Notes: generated by a model not told the origin, from the sequence alone. Numbered from the stretch's first letter, positions 38,914 through 50,846 are shown. The stretch: 53,871 nucleotides of DNA from Parcubacteria group bacterium M6-OD1-4 (GCA_003056205.1 LSNS01000011.1:1-53871), one strand, 5' to 3'. A program made the numbers and translations.

Positions 38914-38959
38914 TTGCAAGCTTTTTTAGGATATGGTATAATTTTTATACTAATTCCTA
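38914..38959 (+). promoter_or_regulatory. abiE promoter with overlapping inverted-repeat operator
   Basis: TTGCAA (38914)-N17-TATAAT (38937) with TG. Inverted repeat TAGGATATGGTATAA-TTT-TTATACTAATTCCTA (12/15) covers the -10. Confidence 0.7.
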
Positions 38960-38967
38960 TAAATCAT

Positions 38968-39603
38968 ATGAAACTACAAGAAATTCAAAAAAAAATTGAT
39001 AATTTACTAATATTAGATAAAAAATATTTAAAATTATTAGAAAAAGATAGTAATAATTTAAATTCTAATCTAAAATATTGGTTAAAAAATAAGGAAATAA
39101 TTGCCTTAAAAAACGGTTCGTATATCTTTACAAAAAAATATAATCAAGAAAAAGATAAAAATTCCTATCTAGAATATCTAGCCAATCAACTCCTCAAGCC
39201 TTCTTATCTGTCTTTAGAATATGTTTTAGCTAAATACCAAATTTTAAGTGAAGCAACCCGGGTTATAACCTCCGTCAGTCAAAAATTAGCTAGAGAGTTT
39301 AAATCTGACATTGCCACTTGGCGCTACTATAGTTTACCGCCAAAATTGTTTTTAGGTTATAAAATATATTATTTCCATAATCAACCGATTGCGATAGCCA
39401 CCAAAGCAAAAGCTCTATTTGACTTTCTTTATTTAAGATTCCGCCGAGGACCGCAAGCTAATTTAAAAAATTTGGAAAATTTGCGTCTTAATTTAGAAAA
39501 TTTAACAACTAAAGAAAAAAATGAGTTATATGATTATTTTACTAAACTACCAGAAAAACGTTGGCAAAATTTTAAAAATATATTAAAACAATATGTTGAT
39601 TAA
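38968..39603 (+). CDS. Type IV toxin-antitoxin antitoxin AbiEi-like
   Basis: LKNGSY, PSYLSLEYVL..Y.IL.E and AT.AKALFDFLY motifs; overlaps the downstream nucleotidyltransferase; ATG at 38968. Confidence 0.85.
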   Translation: MKLQEIQKKIDNLLILDKKYLKLLEKDSNNLNSNLKYWLKNKEIIALKNGSYIFTKKYNQEKDKNSYLEYLANQLLKPSYLSLEYVLAKYQILSEATRVITSVSQKLAREFKSDIATWRYYSLPPKLFLGYKIYYFHNQPIAIATKAKALFDFLYLRFRRGPQANLKNLENLRLNLENLTTKEKNELYDYFTKLPEKRWQNFKNILKQYVD

Positions 39604-40435
39604 ACTCCTCCAAGAATATGTCGATCAAAAAAGGGCTATTAACTGGCCAGATTTTGTAATAGTTAATGCTCTTAAAGAATATTTACAATTCCCAGTTTTA
39701 ACTTTTATCTATGCTAAGCCCCAGTATCAAAATTTTATCTTCATGGGTGGTTCAGCCCTGCGTATTATTTATAAACTTCCCCGCTTATCCGAAGATTTGG
39801 ATCTTAATCTTTCCAAGTCAGATTACAAAAATTTAAATCTAAAAAAACTGGGGGAAGAATTACAAAAATATTTTAAAGATAATTTTATCATGAATTTAAG
39901 TTATCGAGTTCAAGGTAAGAGTGAATCAGGACAAACACATCTCTATCTAAAATTCCCCATCCTCAAACAACTGGGTTTAGCAAAAAAGAATGAAAGTGAT
40001 TTTCTTTTTGTAAAAATAGAACCTCAACTAGAAGATTTTAAAGATCCGGATTATGAAATTCATCCTATCTCTGGTTTTGGTTTTAATTTTCTTGTAAAAA
40101 GTTATAGCTTGAAATTCTTAATGACTGGAAAAATAATGGCAATTTTAGAACGAAATTGGTTTAAAGGTAAGAATAATGAAATAGATATTAAAGGCCGAGA
40201 TTATTATGATTTATATTGGTATTTAGAAAAAGGCGTTCAACCAGATTGGTCCGCTCTTCAAAAAAAATTTAATTTCAAAGATAAATCAGCCATAAAAAAA
40301 GCTCTGAAAGAAAAAATTGATAATCAAGTAAGCGAACGTAAGTTACTATACGATTTAATAAATTTTTTCCCAGAACAAGACTTTATTAAAAATTTCTGTC
40401 ATAATTATAAAGAAATAATAAACAGATATTTGTAA
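39593..40435 (+). CDS. Type IV toxin AbiEii/AbiGii nucleotidyltransferase (DUF1814)
   Basis: FMGGSALRI...RLSEDLD, GK..A...R and KGRDYYDL motifs. Confidence 0.92.
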   Translation: MLIKLLQEYVDQKRAINWPDFVIVNALKEYLQFPVLTFIYAKPQYQNFIFMGGSALRIIYKLPRLSEDLDLNLSKSDYKNLNLKKLGEELQKYFKDNFIMNLSYRVQGKSESGQTHLYLKFPILKQLGLAKKNESDFLFVKIEPQLEDFKDPDYEIHPISGFGFNFLVKSYSLKFLMTGKIMAILERNWFKGKNNEIDIKGRDYYDLYWYLEKGVQPDWSALQKKFNFKDKSAIKKALKEKIDNQVSERKLLYDLINFFPEQDFIKNFCHNYKEIINRYL

Positions 40436-40537: not shown

Positions 40538-41392
40538 TTAAACTAAAGATTTTTTATTATTCTGATTCATTAAATAATTTTTTTTATTTATCAGCGATCG
40601 TTTGAGACGTTTCTCTAAATTTTTTCGGGCATCTCCAGCAATATCGCCACCGGCCTTAGAATCATCTTTTAATTTACTAAAACCCTGCGAATCTTCAACC
40701 CGATGAATTTCCGTGGTGGCGCGCTCACCTAACATATTAAAAATAAGCTCTAAATCGTCCATATGATCACGTAAATTTTCTCTTTTCAGACCCTTAACTT
40801 CTTTATACTGAGTCGGCGTTAAACCAAAAGTCGCTTTTGATATTTCGGCCGTTAGAATTTCATAATCCAAAACATCTTTAGCACCGCGATTTTTCCATTC
40901 ATCGGTCAGTTCTTCTCGAATAGCAATACCGCGCATTCTTTTCTCAATCCAGGAATCGCTATAACCCTTTAGTTTATAAAGTGCTCTAGTTCTCTTGGTC
41001 GCTAACCCTGGATCGCTAATTTCTTGAACACGCTCGTAACCGACTTTTGCTAACCAGCGCTTGAACGGTTCGGCTTTAGGCGAAGGAATAGACTGAATTA
41101 TGCGAAATATTCCTTCGGTATTAGCGCAGTCAGTTCCATATTTTTTACCATCAGAACTTTCCAATTTCAGTTGTCCCCAATTTGGGGACAACTGAAAATC
41201 ATTAAAATCTCTAATCTTAATTTTTTCCCAATACTACCTTGGAGTTGGACTTTCTGATAATACAGCACAAACATCAACCACTGAAAACCACCACTCATCA
41301 TTAAAAATAACGCGCCGAATTTTTTTCCCTTTAAATAACACCGGCTCGTTTATTTTATTTTTTTCAATATTCTTATTTAAATTTTTTTTCAT
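40538..41392 (-). pseudogene. Bro-N (phage antirepressor-like) protein interrupted by an in-frame TAG at codon 53
   Basis: MKKNL...KIRRV...WWFSVVDVC.VL.ES..PR*YW is in frame with RIIQSIPSPKAEPFKRWLA..G.ER and LRDHM; TAG at 41234-41236. Confidence 0.85.
41165..41197. repeat. 33-bp palindrome inside the Bro-N coding sequence
   Basis: TTTCAGTTGTCCCCAA-T-TTGGGGACAACTGAAA has perfect 16-bp arms. Confidence 0.95.
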
Positions 41393-43707: not shown

Positions 43708-44439
43708 ATGACGAGATTAACAAAACAAGAATATTGGGACAATTCATATAAAAATATAAAATTTAAACCAGATAATAGAAAATCTTCAATAATAAAAATA
43801 ATTAACAAAAATTTTAAAAGTGGAACAGGAAAAACAGTTTTAGAAATAGGATGCTTCCCAGGTAGAACACTATTTTATTTCGGATTAAACGGATATGAAA
43901 TAAACGGAATAGACTATTCTATATATTTAGACAGATTGAAAGAGTGGTTTGAAAATAAAAAATTTAAAATAGGTAAATTTGAAAAAGCAGATATAGATAG
44001 AATAAAGATTGACAAAAAATATGACATTGTATTTTCAAGAGGGTTTATAGAACATTTTTCAGATTATAAAGAAAAAATTAAAAAACATATAGAGGCCACT
44101 CAAAAAAATGGATATATACTAATAACAACTCCTAATTTTTCAGGTAAAATACAAAAATTCTTGCATAAAATATGTGACAAAGAGACTTTAGATAAACATT
44201 ATTTACCGGCAACTGATTACAAAAATTGGATAAAAACTTTTGAGGAAAATAATTGTTCTATAGAAAAATCTGGATATTTTGGTGGCTTTGATTTCTGGAT
44301 AGATAAACCTAATATGTCTAAATTAGGAAGAGTAATATTAATGATATTATATAAATTATTTAAGACTCCATTATTTAGGTGTCTCCCCAACAATAAAATG
44401 TGGTCTCCAACAACAGTAATGATTGCTAAAAAACACTAA
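43708..44439 (+). CDS. Class I SAM-dependent methyltransferase (glycan locus)
   Basis: VLEIGCFPG, GIDYS, YDIVFS.GFIEHF and LITTPN motifs; ATG at 43708. Confidence 0.88.
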   Translation: MTRLTKQEYWDNSYKNIKFKPDNRKSSIIKIINKNFKSGTGKTVLEIGCFPGRTLFYFGLNGYEINGIDYSIYLDRLKEWFENKKFKIGKFEKADIDRIKIDKKYDIVFSRGFIEHFSDYKEKIKKHIEATQKNGYILITTPNFSGKIQKFLHKICDKETLDKHYLPATDYKNWIKTFEENNCSIEKSGYFGGFDFWIDKPNMSKLGRVILMILYKLFKTPLFRCLPNNKMWSPTTVMIAKKH

Positions 44440-44543
44440 AGATTTTCCACTTAAAATATAATAAACTATATAAAAATTAATTAGGTGTTTTACAATACAT
44501 AAAATTAGATAAAAATCAAAATAAAAAAATATTATAAATAACT

Positions 44544-45356
44544 ATGAAAATGGCAATACTCTATATATGTACGGGCAAATATAAAATTTTTTGGAAAAAA
44601 TTTTATTTAAGCTGTGAAAAATATTTTATTTCTAATATTAAAAAGGAATATTTTATTTTCACAGATTCTGATTCCTTAAAATTCTCTGATAATAAAAATG
44701 TGCATATAATTTCACAAAAAGACTTAGGTTGGCCATATAATACCTTAATGCGCTATCAAATATTTATTAATTCGCAAAAAGAATGGAGCAATTGTGATTT
44801 TACTTTCTTTTTTAATGCAAATTTGATTTTTAATAAAAAAATAAATAGTGAAGATTTTCTGCCATCTAACAAACAAGAACTAACCGCTTGTTTACATCCT
44901 GGTTTCTTTAATAAAAAACGAAAAGAATTTACTTATGAAAAAAATCCAAGATCAACGGCGTTTATCCCTGAATATAAAGGTCAATATTATTTCGCTGGTG
45001 GAATTAACGGTGGAATAACTAAAAACTTTATAAAAGTAATAACTGTAATTGGAAATAATATTAATAAAGATGAAAAAAATAATATTATTGCGGTTTGGCA
45101 CGATGAATCCCATTGGAATAAATATATAAATGAACATATTAATGAGATTAAAATAATATCTCCATCATATTTATACCCCGAAAAATGGAATATCCCGTTT
45201 GAAAAGAAAATAATTATAAGGAATAAAAATAAGTACGGAGGACATAACTTATTGCGTGGAGTTGATGATGTTAAAAAATCATTAAAAAAGAAAATAATCA
45301 ATCAAACAAAACAACTCATAAAATCCATCTTTTTAAAAGGAAAAAAAATTATTTAA
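44544..45356 (+). CDS. Glycosyltransferase family 6 (ABO-like alpha-1,3-GalNAc/Gal transferase)
   Basis: ICTGKY, WP.NTLMRY, FFNAN (NXN in place of DXD), YFAGGINGG and AVWHDESHWNKY motifs. Confidence 0.9.
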   Translation: MKMAILYICTGKYKIFWKKFYLSCEKYFISNIKKEYFIFTDSDSLKFSDNKNVHIISQKDLGWPYNTLMRYQIFINSQKEWSNCDFTFFFNANLIFNKKINSEDFLPSNKQELTACLHPGFFNKKRKEFTYEKNPRSTAFIPEYKGQYYFAGGINGGITKNFIKVITVIGNNINKDEKNNIIAVWHDESHWNKYINEHINEIKIISPSYLYPEKWNIPFEKKIIIRNKNKYGGHNLLRGVDDVKKSLKKKIINQTKQLIKSIFLKGKKII

Positions 45357-45475
45357 AAAATTTTTAATTAACAATTTTTGTAAATTTATTAAAAACGCTA
45401 ATCCAAATATAATAAGAACTTTAAAGTATTAGTGTAAATGTTTTTTATTTTTTAAATAAAAATAAAATATTAAAT

Positions 45476-46288
45476 ATGCATATTATTTCTATTAAAAACC
45501 TCAAAATATTACTAAAACAAACGTTCTATTTTTTAAATAAAAATAAGTTAAAAACAATAAATAATAAAAAAGATTTTATTGATATAATAACCATAGCTTT
45601 TAATAATGTATCTATACTAAAAATTCAATATTTTTTTATAAAAAAGAATTTAAAAGATTGTTATGAATATTCAATTATTGATAATTCAACAAAAAAAAAT
45701 GTATCAAAATTAATAAAAGAATTTTGCAAAAATGAGAATATTGAATATGTTAAAATACCACAGATTAATATTACATTAAACCCTAGCGATTCTCATGGTT
45801 TAGCTATCAATTGGGCTATTAAAAATTTTATTAAACCCAGGAAGGCAAAATATTTTGGTATAATTGATCATGATATATTTCCTATCAAACCAACAAAAAT
45901 AATAAACATACTAAAAAAACAAGAAATATATGGACACTTACAAATTAGAAAAGCTGGATGGTATCTATGGGCTGGGTTTTGTTTTTTTAATGAAAAGTTT
46001 ATTAATAACAAAAAAATGAACTTTTTACCAAAAAATGGGATGGATAGTGGTGGAGGTAATTATAATGATTTATATAAACATTTAAAACTAGAGAAATTGT
46101 ATTTTCCTTATTATAAAATAAAAAAAATTGGAAATAATAACATAAAACAAAACGATTACATTGAATATATTGGTAATTGGATGCACATAATTAATGCATC
46201 TGGTTGGTTTAATAATGGAAATGAAAAAGACAAAATTAATAAGAAAAAAAAAATAATTATTAAAAATTATAAATATAATGAAACTTAA
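45476..46288 (+). CDS. Putative GT-A-fold glycosyltransferase-like protein
   Basis: IIDNS, SHGLAINW and IIDHDIFP (DXD) motifs; lies between GT6 and GT11. Confidence 0.55.
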   Translation: MHIISIKNLKILLKQTFYFLNKNKLKTINNKKDFIDIITIAFNNVSILKIQYFFIKKNLKDCYEYSIIDNSTKKNVSKLIKEFCKNENIEYVKIPQINITLNPSDSHGLAINWAIKNFIKPRKAKYFGIIDHDIFPIKPTKIINILKKQEIYGHLQIRKAGWYLWAGFCFFNEKFINNKKMNFLPKNGMDSGGGNYNDLYKHLKLEKLYFPYYKIKKIGNNNIKQNDYIEYIGNWMHIINASGWFNNGNEKDKINKKKKIIIKNYKYNET

Positions 46289-46294
46289 ATATAA

Positions 46295-47185
46295 ATGATA
46301 GTTATTAAATTAAAAGGTGGCCTGGGCAATCAAATGTTTCAATATTCTTTTGGTCGCAAACTAGCCAATCTTAATAAAACTGATTTGTTTTTGGAATTAT
46401 CTTCTTATCGTAAAAAATATTTTAAAAAAATAATTAAAAATATTTTAATTATTTCTTTAGAGTGTCTCAAATCTGGCAGAATAAAAAAATCCTTACAAAA
46501 AATCAGACAAGACAAAAGACAATATAATCTCAAATTTTTTGTTCTTGATAATAAAATTAAAAGAATATATACCACCAACTTGCCAGAAATTGCTGAAACA
46601 AAAGAATTTTATTTTGATAAGAATCTATTACATCGGGGAAATAATTTTTCGTATGATGGTTATTTTAATAATGAAAAATATTTTACTGATATTACTAATA
46701 TTATACATGAAGATCTAAAATTAAAAAAAAGGTACCAAGAGAAAATTCCTAAAGAATTAGTTACCAAAATTTTACAATCAGCATCCATATCCTTGCATGT
46801 ACGCCGTGGTGACTATATACACAACAAAAAAATTAATAAATTTCATGGAACATGTTCTATAACATACTATAAAAAATCTATAGAAATAATTAAACAAAAA
46901 ATAAATAATCCTCATTTCTTTGTATTTTCCGATGATATAGAATGGTGTAAAGAAAATTTAGAATTAAGTATAGAAACTACATTTATGTCTAACTTAAAAA
47001 ATTATCAAGATTTATATCTAATGAGTCTTTGTAAACATAATATAATAGCTAACAGCACATTCTCCTGGTGGGGCGCTTGGCTAAATAGTAGTCCTAATAA
47101 AATTGTAATTGCCCCAAAAAAATGGTTTAATAATAAAAAAATAGATATTAGAGACTTAATACCAAAAAAATGGATAAAAATTTAA
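46295..47185 (+). CDS. Alpha-1,2-fucosyltransferase (GT11)
   Basis: GGLGNQMFQY, HVRRGDY, FVFSDD and ANSTFSWWGAWL motifs. Confidence 0.95.
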   Translation: MIVIKLKGGLGNQMFQYSFGRKLANLNKTDLFLELSSYRKKYFKKIIKNILIISLECLKSGRIKKSLQKIRQDKRQYNLKFFVLDNKIKRIYTTNLPEIAETKEFYFDKNLLHRGNNFSYDGYFNNEKYFTDITNIIHEDLKLKKRYQEKIPKELVTKILQSASISLHVRRGDYIHNKKINKFHGTCSITYYKKSIEIIKQKINNPHFFVFSDDIEWCKENLELSIETTFMSNLKNYQDLYLMSLCKHNIIANSTFSWWGAWLNSSPNKIVIAPKKWFNNKKIDIRDLIPKKWIKI

Positions 47186-47988
47186 ATATCCCGCTGGTAA
47201 GTATACTTCTGCCAGTATACAATATGGAAAACTACATTAGAAACTCAATTAAAAGCATATTTAAACAGAGTTATCAACTCTTTGAATTAATAATAATTAA
47301 CGATGGGTCAAAAGATAATACGATCAATGAAATTAAAAAGTTTAATGATTCTCGTATAAAAATTATTGATAACGCAAATAACCTTGGAATACAAAAAACC
47401 TTAAATAAAGGAATTATTGCTTCTTCTGGAAAATATATAGCCAGACTGGATGCTGACGATGAATGGATTAATAAAGATAAATTAAAAAATCAAATTGAAT
47501 TTTTAGAAAATAACACTGAATATGTTTTAATTGGTACTGGAGCTGTATATATTAATGAACAGGGTAAATATCTTTATAAATATTTAAAACCTAAAACGAA
47601 TAAAAAGATTAAAAAAACGCTATTGGGTTATAATTGTTTTATCCATTCTAGCGTAGTATTTAGAAGAAACTCAGTTTTATCTGTTGGGCTATACTCCGAA
47701 GAAAAAACCGATAAACACATAGAAGATTATAATTTATGGCTCAAACTGGGAACTATTGGCAAACTCTACAACCTATCGTCATATGACATTAATTTAATGA
47801 AAAGAAACGATTCTGTTGGACACAAAAATTTAATAGAACAACTAACAAAAACTATACAAATAGCCAAGAAATTTAAAAAATATTATCCTCATAATAAATT
47901 TATTAACTTAATGAGAAATAATATTAGATTAATACTATATAAATATTTTAAAATATTTATATCACTAATACAGCTATTTAAATCCTAA
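47170..47988 (+). CDS. Glycosyltransferase family 2
   Basis: SILLPVYN, INDGSKD, ARLDADD and EDY motifs. Confidence 0.93.
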   Translation: MDKNLNIPLVSILLPVYNMENYIRNSIKSIFKQSYQLFELIIINDGSKDNTINEIKKFNDSRIKIIDNANNLGIQKTLNKGIIASSGKYIARLDADDEWINKDKLKNQIEFLENNTEYVLIGTGAVYINEQGKYLYKYLKPKTNKKIKKTLLGYNCFIHSSVVFRRNSVLSVGLYSEEKTDKHIEDYNLWLKLGTIGKLYNLSSYDINLMKRNDSVGHKNLIEQLTKTIQIAKKFKKYYPHNKFINLMRNNIRLILYKYFKIFISLIQLFKS

Positions 47989-47990
47989 AT

Positions 47991-48878
47991 ATGATCTCTG
48001 TTATTATTCCAACTTATAACAACGTTTACGCACTTATTCATTATTCTCTTCCTAGTTTATTAAAACAAACCTATTCTAATTGGGAGGCTCTGATTATTGA
48101 TGATGGTTCTACTGACGGCACTTCAGAGGTAATAAAAAATTTGTTAAAACAAGATAAACGCTTAAAACTAATTAAACGAAATATTAATTATGGATTAGCT
48201 GCTAGCTTAAACTTAGGGGTAAATAAAGCGAAAGGAAATATTATTGCTATTTTAGAGCATGATGATATCTGGCTACCCAAAAAACTTAGTTCACAAATTA
48301 AAGTATTTTCAACGGGGGTAAAAGTTTCTTTTACTCGTGCAATTGTTTATGATATAAATCTTAAAAAATTTACAAAAATAAACGATGGTAATCTTTCCTG
48401 TTTTATGTTCACAAAGGATATTTCTAAACTTATCTTTCCTATACCAGAAGAAAATAAAAAATATCTAGGAATAGAAGATGGAATAATTACAGCAAGATTA
48501 AAAATTATCAAAGCTGAAAAAAGGATTAAAGACAACGAAAACATTCATATAAATACAATATTAACTATAATGAATTCTAATAACACCACACTTTCTGGAA
48601 TTAAAAATAGTTCAATTATGATGAATAGATATAAAAACGTTTTAAACTTATTTTACTCTTTAAATGGTAAATACTCGGAAATAGATAAATTGCTAAATTT
48701 TTGGAAAAACCATTATTATTTTAATTTAATAATTTCTTATCTACCAATATTTATAAAAAAAATAATTTATCGTCTTATAGAGAGGACCAAAAATAAAAAA
48801 AATAAAAAACTAATAGAAGACTTTAAAAGAAACAAAGAATATTTAATAATTAAAGAATACCGAAAACTTTTTGGTTAA
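47991..48878 (+). CDS. Glycosyltransferase family 2
   Basis: SVIIPTYN, IDDGSTD and LEHDD motifs. Confidence 0.9.
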   Translation: MISVIIPTYNNVYALIHYSLPSLLKQTYSNWEALIIDDGSTDGTSEVIKNLLKQDKRLKLIKRNINYGLAASLNLGVNKAKGNIIAILEHDDIWLPKKLSSQIKVFSTGVKVSFTRAIVYDINLKKFTKINDGNLSCFMFTKDISKLIFPIPEENKKYLGIEDGIITARLKIIKAEKRIKDNENIHINTILTIMNSNNTTLSGIKNSSIMMNRYKNVLNLFYSLNGKYSEIDKLLNFWKNHYYFNLIISYLPIFIKKIIYRLIERTKNKKNKKLIEDFKRNKEYLIIKEYRKLFG

Positions 48879-49768
48879 AACATTAACCCTTTTATCATCC
48901 CAAGCCCTTTCCGAAAATTTCTGGCTAAAAATTGTCTTAAAACCCAACCCAAATTAGCCCAATAAAACCAAGCTAATAAATAAAAGCTTGGTTTCTTATT
49001 TATAGATTTAAATATTATTTTTCGGTTACGGCTTTCTTTATAGCCTATTGAAAATTGCCCTTCCCGACTGATTTCGCTAGGATAATGACATAGTTGAGCC
49101 CTAGGCTCAATAATAAAATGATATCCATACTTTTTGGCACGCAAACAGAAATCAACATCCTCTAAAGCCGTCCGACCTCCAGAAAAATTTGAAAATTTTA
49201 ATTTTTTAGTTATATCTAATTTATATGAACAAACTCCGCCGTGAGCATAATATCCGATAGAAGCATGTTTGATTTCTTCATTCCAGACTTGAAACCCTAC
49301 GCTATTAACATCCCAATAATATTTTGAATTTATACCAAAAAAAATATTAAAATACTTTTCAAAAGATTTTTTTATACGATGATTTTTAATTATACCGCCA
49401 ACACCAATTAAACTGCTGTCATTTATTGAACTATGCCAGACTTTTATTATTGCTTCACAAAAGTTAGTCTCTAAAATAATATCATCATCTAAAATAAAAA
49501 ATATATTATTTTGTATTAATTCTAAAGATCTATTTTTAGATTCTGATAACCCTCTTCTCTCTTTTTTATGATTCTTTTTATAATAAAAAAAATTAATTTT
49601 ATGTTGATTAAAATTAATTTTATATATATCAATAAAATCTGATGATAAATTACCATCATCAATAATAATAATTTCATCAGGTAAAACTGTTTGATTAAGA
49701 ATAGAATTAAGGCATTTCTTAAGATCTTTTTGGCGATTATATGTTGGTATTACTATACTAAACTTCAT
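48875..49768 (-). CDS. Glycosyltransferase family 2
   Basis: SIVIPTYNR, IDDG, LDDD and EDVDFCLR motifs. Confidence 0.92.
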   Translation of the reverse strand: MKFSIVIPTYNRQKDLKKCLNSILNQTVLPDEIIIIDDGNLSSDFIDIYKINFNQHKINFFYYKKNHKKERRGLSESKNRSLELIQNNIFFILDDDIILETNFCEAIIKVWHSSINDSSLIGVGGIIKNHRIKKSFEKYFNIFFGINSKYYWDVNSVGFQVWNEEIKHASIGYYAHGGVCSYKLDITKKLKFSNFSGGRTALEDVDFCLRAKKYGYHFIIEPRAQLCHYPSEISREGQFSIGYKESRNRKIIFKSINKKPSFYLLAWFYWANLGWVLRQFLARNFRKGLGMIKGLMF

Positions 49769-50846
49769 AAATATCTTGATATTTTTTAACCATATTAATA
49801 TCTGAAAATAATTTATTATTAATTATGGCTTGATTTTCTCCTTTTAATTTATTCAAAAATTCTTCTTTATCATTTACTTCAAAACAATTCTCCACTCCGA
49901 CAATTTCTTCATTTCCTCCTACTCGACTGGAAATAGCCGGAACTTTAGCACTGACCGCCTCAATTAAACTTATTGACAAACCTTCAAAAATTGAAGGTAA
50001 AACAAATAAATCAAAGGCTTTTAAATAACGACTAGCTTGTTTAATTTCTCCACTTAAAATTATTCTATCTTCTAGTTTATATGATTTTATCAGATTTTCA
50101 TACTTAATTCGTTCTGGTCCTTCTCCAATAATTAATAATCTAGCTTTAGGTTCTATATTTTTAACTGCCTTGAAAGTATTAATTAAAAATTCATAATTTT
50201 TAGGATAAGCTAATCTACCGATTGAACCATAAACATAGTCTTCGGGATTTAATTTTAAAATTTGGCGAGCTTCTTCACGACTAAGCAAATAATCAGGTGG
50301 AAAGCTAACCCCATTATAAATTAAAGTACTTTTATTTTCTAAACCCCGGAGTAAACCAGAAGTTTTAGCAAAATCTAAATTAAGACGACTAACAAAAACT
50401 ATTTGATCTAATTTTTTAAAAGCCAGTCTGAAAAACAAACGATAAATTAATTTAAGAGGAGCAAAAACTTGATACCTATTGTCTAAAAGCGACAAACCGT
50501 GAACAGTAAAAATTAAACGTGGTCTAGACTTTAATTTAGCTAAACCCCAAACTCCCAATAAAGTGTTAGAACTATTAAAATGAACAACATCAAACTTTTC
50601 ACTTATTACATAATTTTTTAATTCCGAGATAAAACTTAAATTTTTAAAAGGATTATTGCCTCGCTTTAATTTATTTAAACGTTTAAATTTAATGTCTATT
50701 TTTTTCAATTCTTCTGGCAAATAATTTCCATCACCAGCGGCTACAACAACTTCATTATTATTTTCTTTTAACCCTCGCGCTAAATTGAGCACTACATTTT
50801 GAGCTCCGCCTATTTCTGCTTTAGTTATGACCAGAAGAATTTTCAT
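49758..50846 (-). CDS. Glycosyltransferase family 4
   Basis: GGAQ, FTVHG, IGRL..PKN and EGLSISLIEA motifs. Confidence 0.92.
   Translation of the reverse strand: MKILLVITKAEIGGAQNVVLNLARGLKENNNEVVVAAGDGNYLPEELKKIDIKFKRLNKLKRGNNPFKNLSFISELKNYVISEKFDVVHFNSSNTLLGVWGLAKLKSRPRLIFTVHGLSLLDNRYQVFAPLKLIYRLFFRLAFKKLDQIVFVSRLNLDFAKTSGLLRGLENKSTLIYNGVSFPPDYLLSREEARQILKLNPEDYVYGSIGRLAYPKNYEFLINTFKAVKNIEPKARLLIIGEGPERIKYENLIKSYKLEDRIILSGEIKQASRYLKAFDLFVLPSIFEGLSISLIEAVSAKVPAISSRVGGNEEIVGVENCFEVNDKEEFLNKLKGENQAIINNKLFSDINMVKKYQDIYEV

Follow-up and report, generated by a model that had tools for sequence, protein, structure and literature searches.

Genes are expected to contain few inverted repeats and to lose them quickly. 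The described systems closest to the element studied here are the quasi-palindromes at which mutations arise by template switching, as in the model of Ripley; the inverted repeats of organelle genes; the targets of diversity-generating retroelements, whose variable region is bordered on the 3' side by a hairpin or cruciform; and the attC sites of integrons, which are imperfect palindromes, depend on structure over sequence and are tied to exchangeable cassettes. The closest described gene is dinD of E. coli, whose product is SOS-induced and has a RecA-modulating role. Here, we analysed a stretch of 53,871 nucleotides from Parcubacteria group bacterium M6-OD1-4 (GCA_003056205.1 LSNS01000011.1:1-53871), referred to as the window, in which a perfect palindrome of 33 bp lies within a Bro-N / PDC-S13 gene encoding a DinD-like protein. 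Counted from the first letter of the window, the element and the gene are located as follows:

41165..41197, no strand assigned: perfect 33-bp palindrome with arms at 41165-41180 and 41182-41197 and its centre at 41181
40538..41392, minus strand: Bro-N / PDC-S13 (DinD-like) gene of 284 codons with a single in-frame TAG, matching PF02498, PDLC04920, and phrog_15286

The palindrome resembles each of the known systems in part. It shares with quasi-palindromic template-switch sites the mirrored multi-nucleotide changes, the apparent flips of the centre, the lasting perfect arms, and the joint replacement of neighbouring residues. Unlike those sites, it occupies one codon position throughout the family, in many phyla and in a sister subfamily, and it sits in an exchangeable cassette; the data on it are comparative. 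Similar to the organelle repeats, it is a perfect repeat embedded in functional coding sequence and a compromise between protein and nucleic-acid structure. However, the organelle repeats are many, measure up to 284 bp, come from few species, and encode conserved protein in both arms, whereas DinD-like genes have one short element each, with one arm in a tolerant loop. As in retroelement targets, a variable coding stretch of ~100-150 nt has a hairpin-forming element near its 3' border, but the differences between cassette types are wholesale, including indels, and are not adenine-specific; neither a template repeat nor a reverse transcriptase was noticed, no search aimed at them having been made. 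With attC sites the element has in common that structure rather than sequence appears to matter and that it is associated with exchangeable cassettes; in contrast to attC, it is located inside the reading frame and not at a cassette end, and the exchange borders are off its centre. E. coli DinD and the PDC-S13 proteins share the Bro-N domain at the N-terminus and a related helical domain at the C-terminus, and their genes a palindrome at the equivalent place, but the direct similarity of DinD to the window protein is weak, DinD fitting the profile PDLC04919 and the window protein the sister profile PDLC04920. No description of coding palindromes in dinD, Bro-N, or KilA-N genes was found in the literature searched, with subscription journals outside its coverage.

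A repeat search of the window returned both arms as 16 nt each, 100% complementary, and separated by the 1-nt spacer at 41181. The palindrome is located 196-228 nt inside the coding sequence (CDS) and encodes residues F66-K76 of the minus-strand gene, FQLSPNWGQLK, while the plus strand reads FQLSPIWGQLK in frame across it. The repeat search and the translation confirmed what had been noted in an earlier, sequence-only reading of the window, namely a perfect 33-bp palindrome with 16-bp arms that is in frame on both strands and exchanges N for I; this N/I swap arises automatically when the centre of a palindrome coincides with a second codon base. The 16-mer arm is unique in the window at a tolerance of up to 3 mismatches. 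A census of the genome (784,737 bases; perfect arms of at least 10 nt, loop of at most 6 nt) yielded 62 perfect palindromes, and that at 41165-41197 ranks second in length. The majority of the 62 lie outside long open reading frames (ORFs) and have terminator-like A-run/T-run ends; among the 13 inside long ORFs, the runner-up to 41165-41197 has 12-nt arms. The palindrome is far above chance expectation. It occurs with zero differences in contigs from four other public runs of two studies, and these contigs differ from the window gene solely at positions 40883, 40967, 41007, and 41009. In run X5, two contigs (records 12 and 13) terminate or start within the palindrome and overlap at 41165-41186, which most likely represents a break of the assembly graph at the self-complementary 33-mer.

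Relatives of the gene were collected in a scan using one genome per species. At least 588 relatives were present among 600 candidate stretches, and the best 80 were kept. The proteins of these 80 are 65-83% identical and originate from groups of the candidate phyla radiation (CPR), Omnitrophota, Pseudomonadota, Bacteroidota, Nitrospirota, and others. Within the order of the window itself, the family occurs in 83 of 201 genomes with at most 6 matches per genome, the best relative being 78% identical. We then compared the top-scoring palindrome of the whole ORF in 81 genes, i.e., the 80 loci (designated by L and a number) and the window. In 77 of the 81 genes, this palindrome is centred 87-93 nt before the motif SIPSPKAEPFK, namely at -89 (61 genes), -87 (13 genes), -93 (2 genes), or -90 (1 gene). 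The four exceptions are L065, which is cut by a contig end, L027 and L029, in which the palindrome is second best, and L071. In the 13 genes at -87, the centre is on the first codon base rather than the second, indicating that the position is fixed in the DNA and not in the reading frame. An independent sample was drawn from 120 further genomes of the phylum, with genes picked via the Bro-N hidden Markov model (HMM); in all 21 subfamily genes of this sample, 142-159 nt separated the best palindrome from HMM position 1.

While the position is kept, the sequences of the palindromes and the encoded peptides vary widely among the homologues. Examples are QLSTICRQLK (ttcagttgtcgacaaTttgtcgacaactgaa), VTFCHG (cgtgacaTTTtgtcacg), SQPFPFWEQL, KGWGQIATPL, VSEKIGQ, and GGVQFVPPL. 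The sequence-only reading had stated that homologues differ at this spot and are self-complementary there as well, and this was borne out, including the VTNCHQLK-like form it had named (L109). The window's own form, FQLSPNWGQLK, was encountered again without change in L089 (perfect arms of 18 nt) and L092 (perfect arms of 16 nt), which belong to two genomes of the window's genus. The palindromes of the window and L092 differ at four bases, all of them mirrored (cagttg/caactg versus caactg/cagttg), and both are perfect. For further comparison, a set of 106 sequences was used, comprising 78 of the 80 loci of the species scan, 27 of 29 loci of the window's own order, and the window; it omits L039, L065, and L106 (contig ends) and L098 (internal TGA), and its row L085 is the second paralogue of that locus, which is 46% identical. 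Perfect arms in this set measure between 2 and 18 nt, with at least 14 nt in 15 genes.

Synonymous shuffles, in which codons were redrawn from family usage with 200 redraws per gene in 79 genes, gave a mean best palindrome score of 3.96 compared to an observed score of 10.06. The observed score was reached by none of the 200 shuffles in 51 of the 79 genes and by at most 10 in 77. Some palindromic character might be expected from chance or from protein-level constraint alone, such as a symmetric peptide: complementarity is partly built into the amino-acid pairs S/R, T/C, P/W, V/H, and Q/L, and the shuffled genes retain the above average of 3.96, or 5.0-6.6 in the E. coli-type subfamily. However, this explanation is contradicted by the codon shuffles and by the slid-partner control described below, and the centre falls in another codon phase in 13 of the 81 genes. 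We therefore regard it as extremely improbable.

Covariation was determined on a gapless alignment of the 106 sequences (103 distinct) on the palindrome centre, using the 16 pairs of the window stem. Of the cells, 80.3% were paired. Shuffling of the partners lowered this to 59.1%, with none of 500 shuffles reaching the observed value, and sliding them by 1-3 columns gave 34-44%. Both sides change in 15 of the 16 arm pairs, and the covariation score was 0.557 versus 0.186 upon shuffling. The search for compensatory changes in a family alignment that had been suggested along with the initial observation thus gave a positive answer. Among the 103 distinct sequences, pairing amounts to 85-100% at distances 2-8 from the centre, 57-69% at 9-10, and 99-100% at 11-12, and drops to background past a distance of ~15. 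Within single cassette types, the in-arm partner columns 12/34, 15/31, 18/28, and 19/27 displayed complete association and were always Watson-Crick. For partner columns outside the arms, the association was 0.0-0.35, and of the more than 100 non-partner column pairs per type only 1-3 reached 0.9 or more. Several of the associated in-arm columns are synonymous sites 10-22 nt apart, and paired positions toggle between A-T and G-C within one peptide type.

As the arms change together, something acts on the symmetry of DNA or RNA inside the CDS. To this extent the claim of the sequence-only reading stands; selection as the acting force, which it had also proposed, is one of the alternatives weighed below. 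The comparison suggests that the inherited property is intrastrand complementarity, neither sequence nor peptide, and the palindrome is kept self-complementary across many bacterial phyla even at the cost of amino-acid changes. One form of such symmetry would be a hairpin in the mRNA, serving for example as an RNase III site, as a translational pause, or in autoregulation at the RNA level. A single strand of the palindrome folds as RNA with -30.5 kcal/mol (z -6.6) and as DNA with -16.6 kcal/mol (z -6.5), in each case with 0 of 200 shuffles equal, and the sense strand of the VTFCHG subtype has U.G at position 14/32 (17 sequences). However, among the in-arm mismatches the sense-strand G.U is the rarest class, with 4 occurrences versus 20 A.C and 28 others beside 899 Watson-Crick pairs; the lack of G.U enrichment speaks against selection for a hairpin in the mRNA alone. 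An intrinsic terminator is not indicated either, as no T-run follows the stem on either strand, the bases after the hairpin being TTGGAAAG on the sense strand and ATCATTAAAATC on the other. Rfam returned nothing at the gathering threshold (best matches RAGATH-7 with 21.3 bits versus 111.8 and snR36 with 19.1 versus 50), and no RNA run was found to contain the stretch. A role in the mRNA is hence considered unlikely.

At its centre, the palindrome has T in 65 of the 106 genes and A in the other 41; C and G do not occur. The central triplets form reverse-complement pairs (ATT 29/AAT 27, TTT 28/AAA 10, and GTT 2/AAC 1), and each of the types STxCR, VTxCH, and SPxW includes both orientations. For the second codon phase, the equivalent is formed by A-centred GQIA and T-centred VQFV, which were labelled as separate types. 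In line with the sequence-only reading, AAT and ATT alternate among homologues of the window's own subtype, with SPNWG in the window, L089, and L092 and SPIWV in L083 and L087. At the protein level these swaps are radical (I/N, F/K, and I/F), and the conservative centre transitions I to V and N to S, which would be expected of an unconstrained centre base, are absent among the 106 genes. Inversion of the spacer would yield a centre restricted to A and T in reverse-complement pairs, although for a centre of 1 nt an inversion is indistinguishable from an A/T transversion.

The palindrome is part of a segment in which members of the family differ most. The corresponding parts of the window gene are:

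41132..41248, minus strand: hypervariable cassette, ~residues 49-87, with the palindrome in its 3' half
41045..41323, minus strand: Bro-N domain, residues 24-116 (PF02498)
40541..41044, minus strand: conserved helical C-terminal domain, residues 117-284

Per-column pairwise identity among 105 genes is 0.35-0.47 at residues 48-85, 0.60-0.69 upstream of the cassette (residues 18-47), and 0.81-0.95 at residues 96-165. At the DNA level, L086 and L096 are 83-100% identical from +60 on and 40-47% identical from -90 to +30, and L010 and L054, two loci of one metagenome-assembled genome, show the same kind of difference. On a tree of the C-terminal 165 residues, the cassette type requires 65 changes versus 65.9 with shuffled labels. 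With 4 of its 101 branches starred, this tree has poor resolution, and exchange is better supported by the pairwise profiles. They suggest that the hypervariable stretch behaves as a cassette swapped among otherwise near-identical genes. Its borders lie ~100 nt upstream and 20-60 nt downstream of the palindrome centre and not at the centre. In an AlphaFold2 model based on an alignment of 41 sequences (mean predicted local distance difference test (pLDDT) score 73.1; predicted template modelling score 0.42), residues 55-63 form a helix, residues 64-71 a loop (pLDDT <50 at residues 66-68), and residues 72-78 and 84-91 the strands of a wing. The left arm (FQLSP) would accordingly encode a floppy loop of low confidence and the right arm (WGQLK) the first β-strand of the wing. 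As judged from the model, a left arm in a tolerant loop would fit one arm being free to follow the other. The top Foldseek match of the model was 7qvb_B, the DNA-break-binding protein DdrC, which is a weak match (E 1.6e-3; TM score 0.23-0.26; root-mean-square deviation 14.4).

The location of the palindrome in a DNA-binding domain had led the sequence-only reading to propose an operator encoded within the segment that reads it, i.e., a dyad that is bound by a protein dimer through the very residues the site encodes. The element indeed has dyad symmetry and lies within the variable helix-plus-wing part of the domain, and a single cassette would pass on the site together with its reading head. 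Against this, a fixed reading head should hold the bases fixed, but they toggle between A-T and G-C within the same peptide type; in addition, the left-arm peptide is the low-confidence loop, and the arm length is very uneven. Second sites with at most 3 mismatches to the gene's own 19-nt core were found within about 1.5 kb at only 2 of the 106 loci; one such site lies in an adjacent ORF6N gene, and the second is a degenerate remnant. A search of five genomes with a 17-nt core and up to 3 mismatches gave counts similar to those of a reversed-pattern control, and the best extra match (G113, 2 mismatches) falls into an ORF that was read as adenylosuccinate synthetase from its sequence alone. We thus consider an operator of this kind very improbable, and the proposal finds no support. 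An orphan element was observed at ~1183-1207 of L045, ~180 nt upstream of the DinD-like gene; it is a perfect palindrome with 11-nt arms and an AAA centre.

Similarity of E. coli K-12 DinD to the window protein is weak (BLASTP E 0.014, C-terminal part only; hhalign probability 2.8%). DinD has a Bro-N domain and matches PDLC04919 with E 2.4e-121, compared to E 2.2e-16 over residues 122-250 for the window's model PDLC04920. The K-12 gene has a palindrome with 15-nt arms that are 93% complementary, the single mismatch being T.T, at codons 58-68, a place equivalent to that in the window gene. The remaining 8 Bro-N matches of the independent sample were likewise of the E. coli DinD type. When 10 DinD-type genes were scanned for inverted repeats with loops of 0-24 nt and 300 synonymous shuffles each, the best repeat lay over the DHF...M segment in all 10. 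In 6 genes, including K-12 (0 of 300), no more than 9 of the 300 shuffles matched its score; it was not above the shuffles in L142, L135, L143, and the O157-type allele. The element is thus common to both PDC-S13 subfamilies and weaker in the E. coli DinD type. In the K-12-like dinD of strains C4, EC21Z-101, and 405, no change occurred within the palindrome. E. coli dinD is dimorphic over nt 30-246 around the palindrome (L111 5790-6006 versus L112): across the region of the palindrome, 1896 of 5426 complete genomes agree with K-12, while the other 2774 matching genomes, according to sampled rows, are mostly identical only from ~42 nt past it. The O157-type allele differs throughout nt 30-246 and retains just a repeat with 7-nt arms and a 14-nt loop.

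Palindromes also occur in genes next to members of the family. In the gene upstream of the DinD-like gene, ORF6N-type sequence was observed in L107 (~930-1030), L093 (~660-750), and L015 (~968-995); Pfam ORF6N (PF10543) was confirmed in L107 and L015 only. These ORF6N-type genes have coding palindromes just before the GGRRxLPYxFTEQG strand, e.g., LKSQIATS (aacttgaagtcgcaaAttgcgacttcaagtt), and those of L107 and L093 have two coding palindromes that are 63 nt apart and in frame. Two further observations concern dinD itself. In E. coli RM9088 (L113 456-739), an IS1A insertion truncates the gene, which is annotated as a frameshifted BRO family pseudogene. DinD (L111 5761-6582) moreover matches the PADLOC profile of a Type I restriction specificity subunit, PDLC03083 (E 3.1e-114, positions 6-267 of 717), suggesting that some HsdS proteins are fused to a DinD-like module.

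We favour, at about an even chance, the explanation that the palindrome is a self-correcting hairpin at the DNA level, maintained by template switching and without a dedicated role. The window palindrome would then be this genome's copy of a position-fixed DNA dyad, capable of forming a hairpin or cruciform, in the swappable cassette of the family. Intrastrand template switching at the hairpin would rewrite one arm from the other, thereby homogenising the arms, and would also flip the centre by inversion of the spacer. The left-arm residues FQLSP would be largely dictated by complementarity to the constrained right arm WGQLK. Selection on the protein would subsequently filter the products, and the outcome would be coupled changes of several residues in a variable loop. 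Hairpin-templated copying is favoured by the mirrored changes of the arms, the apparent flips of the centre, the location of one arm in a tolerant loop, the difference between the window and L092, and the orphan in L045. This orphan, in a frame closed by nearby stops, is similar to the element of the PFPFWE type but has a 1-nt deletion mirrored in both arms and a spacer in the opposite orientation. Documented and proposed precedents point in the same direction: in yeast coding genes, template switching homogenises the arms of inverted repeats and inverts spacers (PMC8604942), and a study of proteobacterial inverted repeats (PMC5941160) proposes that it keeps bacterial inverted repeats perfect. 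The template-switch diversification site suggested in the sequence-only reading is therefore the proposal we retain, with the qualification that we infer from sequence comparison both that template switching maintains the pairing and that the element has no dedicated function.

Several observations weigh against copying as the maintaining process. Its support is wholly comparative; the sequences are related and recombining, so that counts of paired cells are not independent events, and recombination apparently leaves no reliable tree of the cassettes. Perfect arms of at least 7 nt are present in only 78 of the 106 genes. No polymorphism at the centre, AAT/ATT or other, was seen in the contigs of the four runs, where rare variants drop out. 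In the VTFCHG subtype, the pair 12/34 is always paired while its inward neighbours are G.G and T.G. This pair is A-T in 13 and G-C in 8 of 21 distinct VTxCH sequences and, as read from the alignment, in 8 and 6, respectively, within VTFCHG. A primer formed by folding back would end on a mismatch here, and selection for pairing thus accounts for the state of 12/34 more readily than copying does. Finally, persistence in two weakly similar subfamilies and in adjacent ORF6N genes appears to be much for a by-product.

The latter observations, i.e., the pairing of 12/34 across an internal mismatch, the persistence in two subfamilies, and the ORF6N palindromes, keep a selected structural signal under consideration as a less likely explanation. 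The palindrome would be a structure-specific cis element, a DNA hairpin or cruciform whose job requires only pairing, either as a site prone to breaks or initiating recombination, by which the specificity cassette would be replaced among paralogues, or as a structure to which the DinD/DdrC-like protein itself or a host factor would bind and thereby set expression. In line with such an element, pairing is nearly complete at distances 11-12 although it falls off at 9-10; the palindrome is present in both PDC-S13 subfamilies, including K-12 dinD with its 0 of 300 shuffles; and the centre is restricted to A and T and A/T-rich. An A/T-rich centre favours cruciform extrusion. The element further sits within a cassette that is exchanged between near-identical backbones, as in L086 and L096, and the type of which changes on the C-terminal tree about as often as shuffled labels; the dimorphism of E. 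coli dinD surrounds the palindrome, up to 6 family matches occur per genome, and the top structural match, though weak, is DNA-break-binding DdrC. On the other hand, the arm length is uneven, the C-terminal tree is poorly resolved, and the cassette borders are located away from the centre. A break-inducing site should also vanish by conversion unless all donors carry one, a hotspot paradox. We tentatively entertain that one DNA stretch encodes both a protein loop and a selected cruciform or hairpin in the specificity cassette of DinD/PDC-S13 proteins; such a structure would start replacement or rewriting of the cassette, as a built-in diversifier of a candidate defence gene, or would be sensed by the structure-binding protein itself.

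By either route, a whole accessory gene family keeps an inverted repeat at a single codon position and pays for it in amino-acid changes. The family extends over many phyla, is present in multiple copies in small CPR genomes, is a candidate for phage defence, and is related to dinD, an SOS gene that has been known for long but is little understood. Should errors of copying be what maintains the palindrome, it would be a clean natural case of a self-perpetuating DNA structure, and the coupled amino-acid replacements would be misread as positive selection or coevolution. If selection does, the coding sequence would contain a hidden structural signal in the very segment that varies between alleles. 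A preprint (bioRxiv 10.1101/2024.01.29.577857) describes the PDC systems as untested phage-defence candidates obtained by 'guilt by embedding'; its main text makes no mention of PDC-S13.

The protein encoded by the window gene matches Bro-N (PF02498) over residues 24-116 with 49.7 bits versus a cut-off of 25.6 (E 5.7e-13; HMM positions 1-92 of 96) and with 52.0 bits in a genome-wide search. It is a full-length match to PADLOC PDC-S13 PDLC04920 (E 8.9e-111; residues 15-281, profile positions 5-274 of 286) and also matches phrog_15286, a family of unknown function, with E 1e-85; NCBIfam has no family for it. VioA was the sole match among proteins of solved structure by sequence and was rejected as spurious (E 0.015). 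The gene is the sole copy of the family in this genome and is interrupted by a stop codon:

41234..41236, minus strand: in-frame TAG, codon 53, in the same frame as the remaining gene

Homologues have a variable residue (D, T, A, K, V, or S) at this position. TAG terminates 65 of 378 long ORFs of the genome, no suppressor tRNA was present among the 44 tRNAs found by ARAGORN, and the identical TAG letters occur in the contigs of the four other runs from the two studies (2018 and 2021). TAG being an ordinary stop that recurs in these runs, the gene is really interrupted in this population, and its presence in both 2018 and 2021 indicates that the interrupted gene persists there. Apart from the stop, the window gene is well preserved: it deviates at 3 of 105 highly conserved columns, compared to a median of 1 and a maximum of 10 in intact members of the main group. 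Such deviations were discarded as uninformative for the age of a dead gene.

The window gene is flanked by an AbiEii toxin gene on one side and by a gene for GDP-mannose 4,6-dehydratase on the other. In the region 38914-40435, the AbiEii toxin gene (PF08843, E 5.2e-23) shares 11 bases with an ORF of 229 amino acids upstream of it, and this pair is located directly downstream of the Bro-N gene. The 229-amino-acid ORF had no Pfam match and is possibly the antitoxin partner of the toxin. Just past the sugar-nucleotide genes, at 44001-50000, the G+C content is 0.22-0.26, compared to 0.31-0.40 in the remainder of the window.

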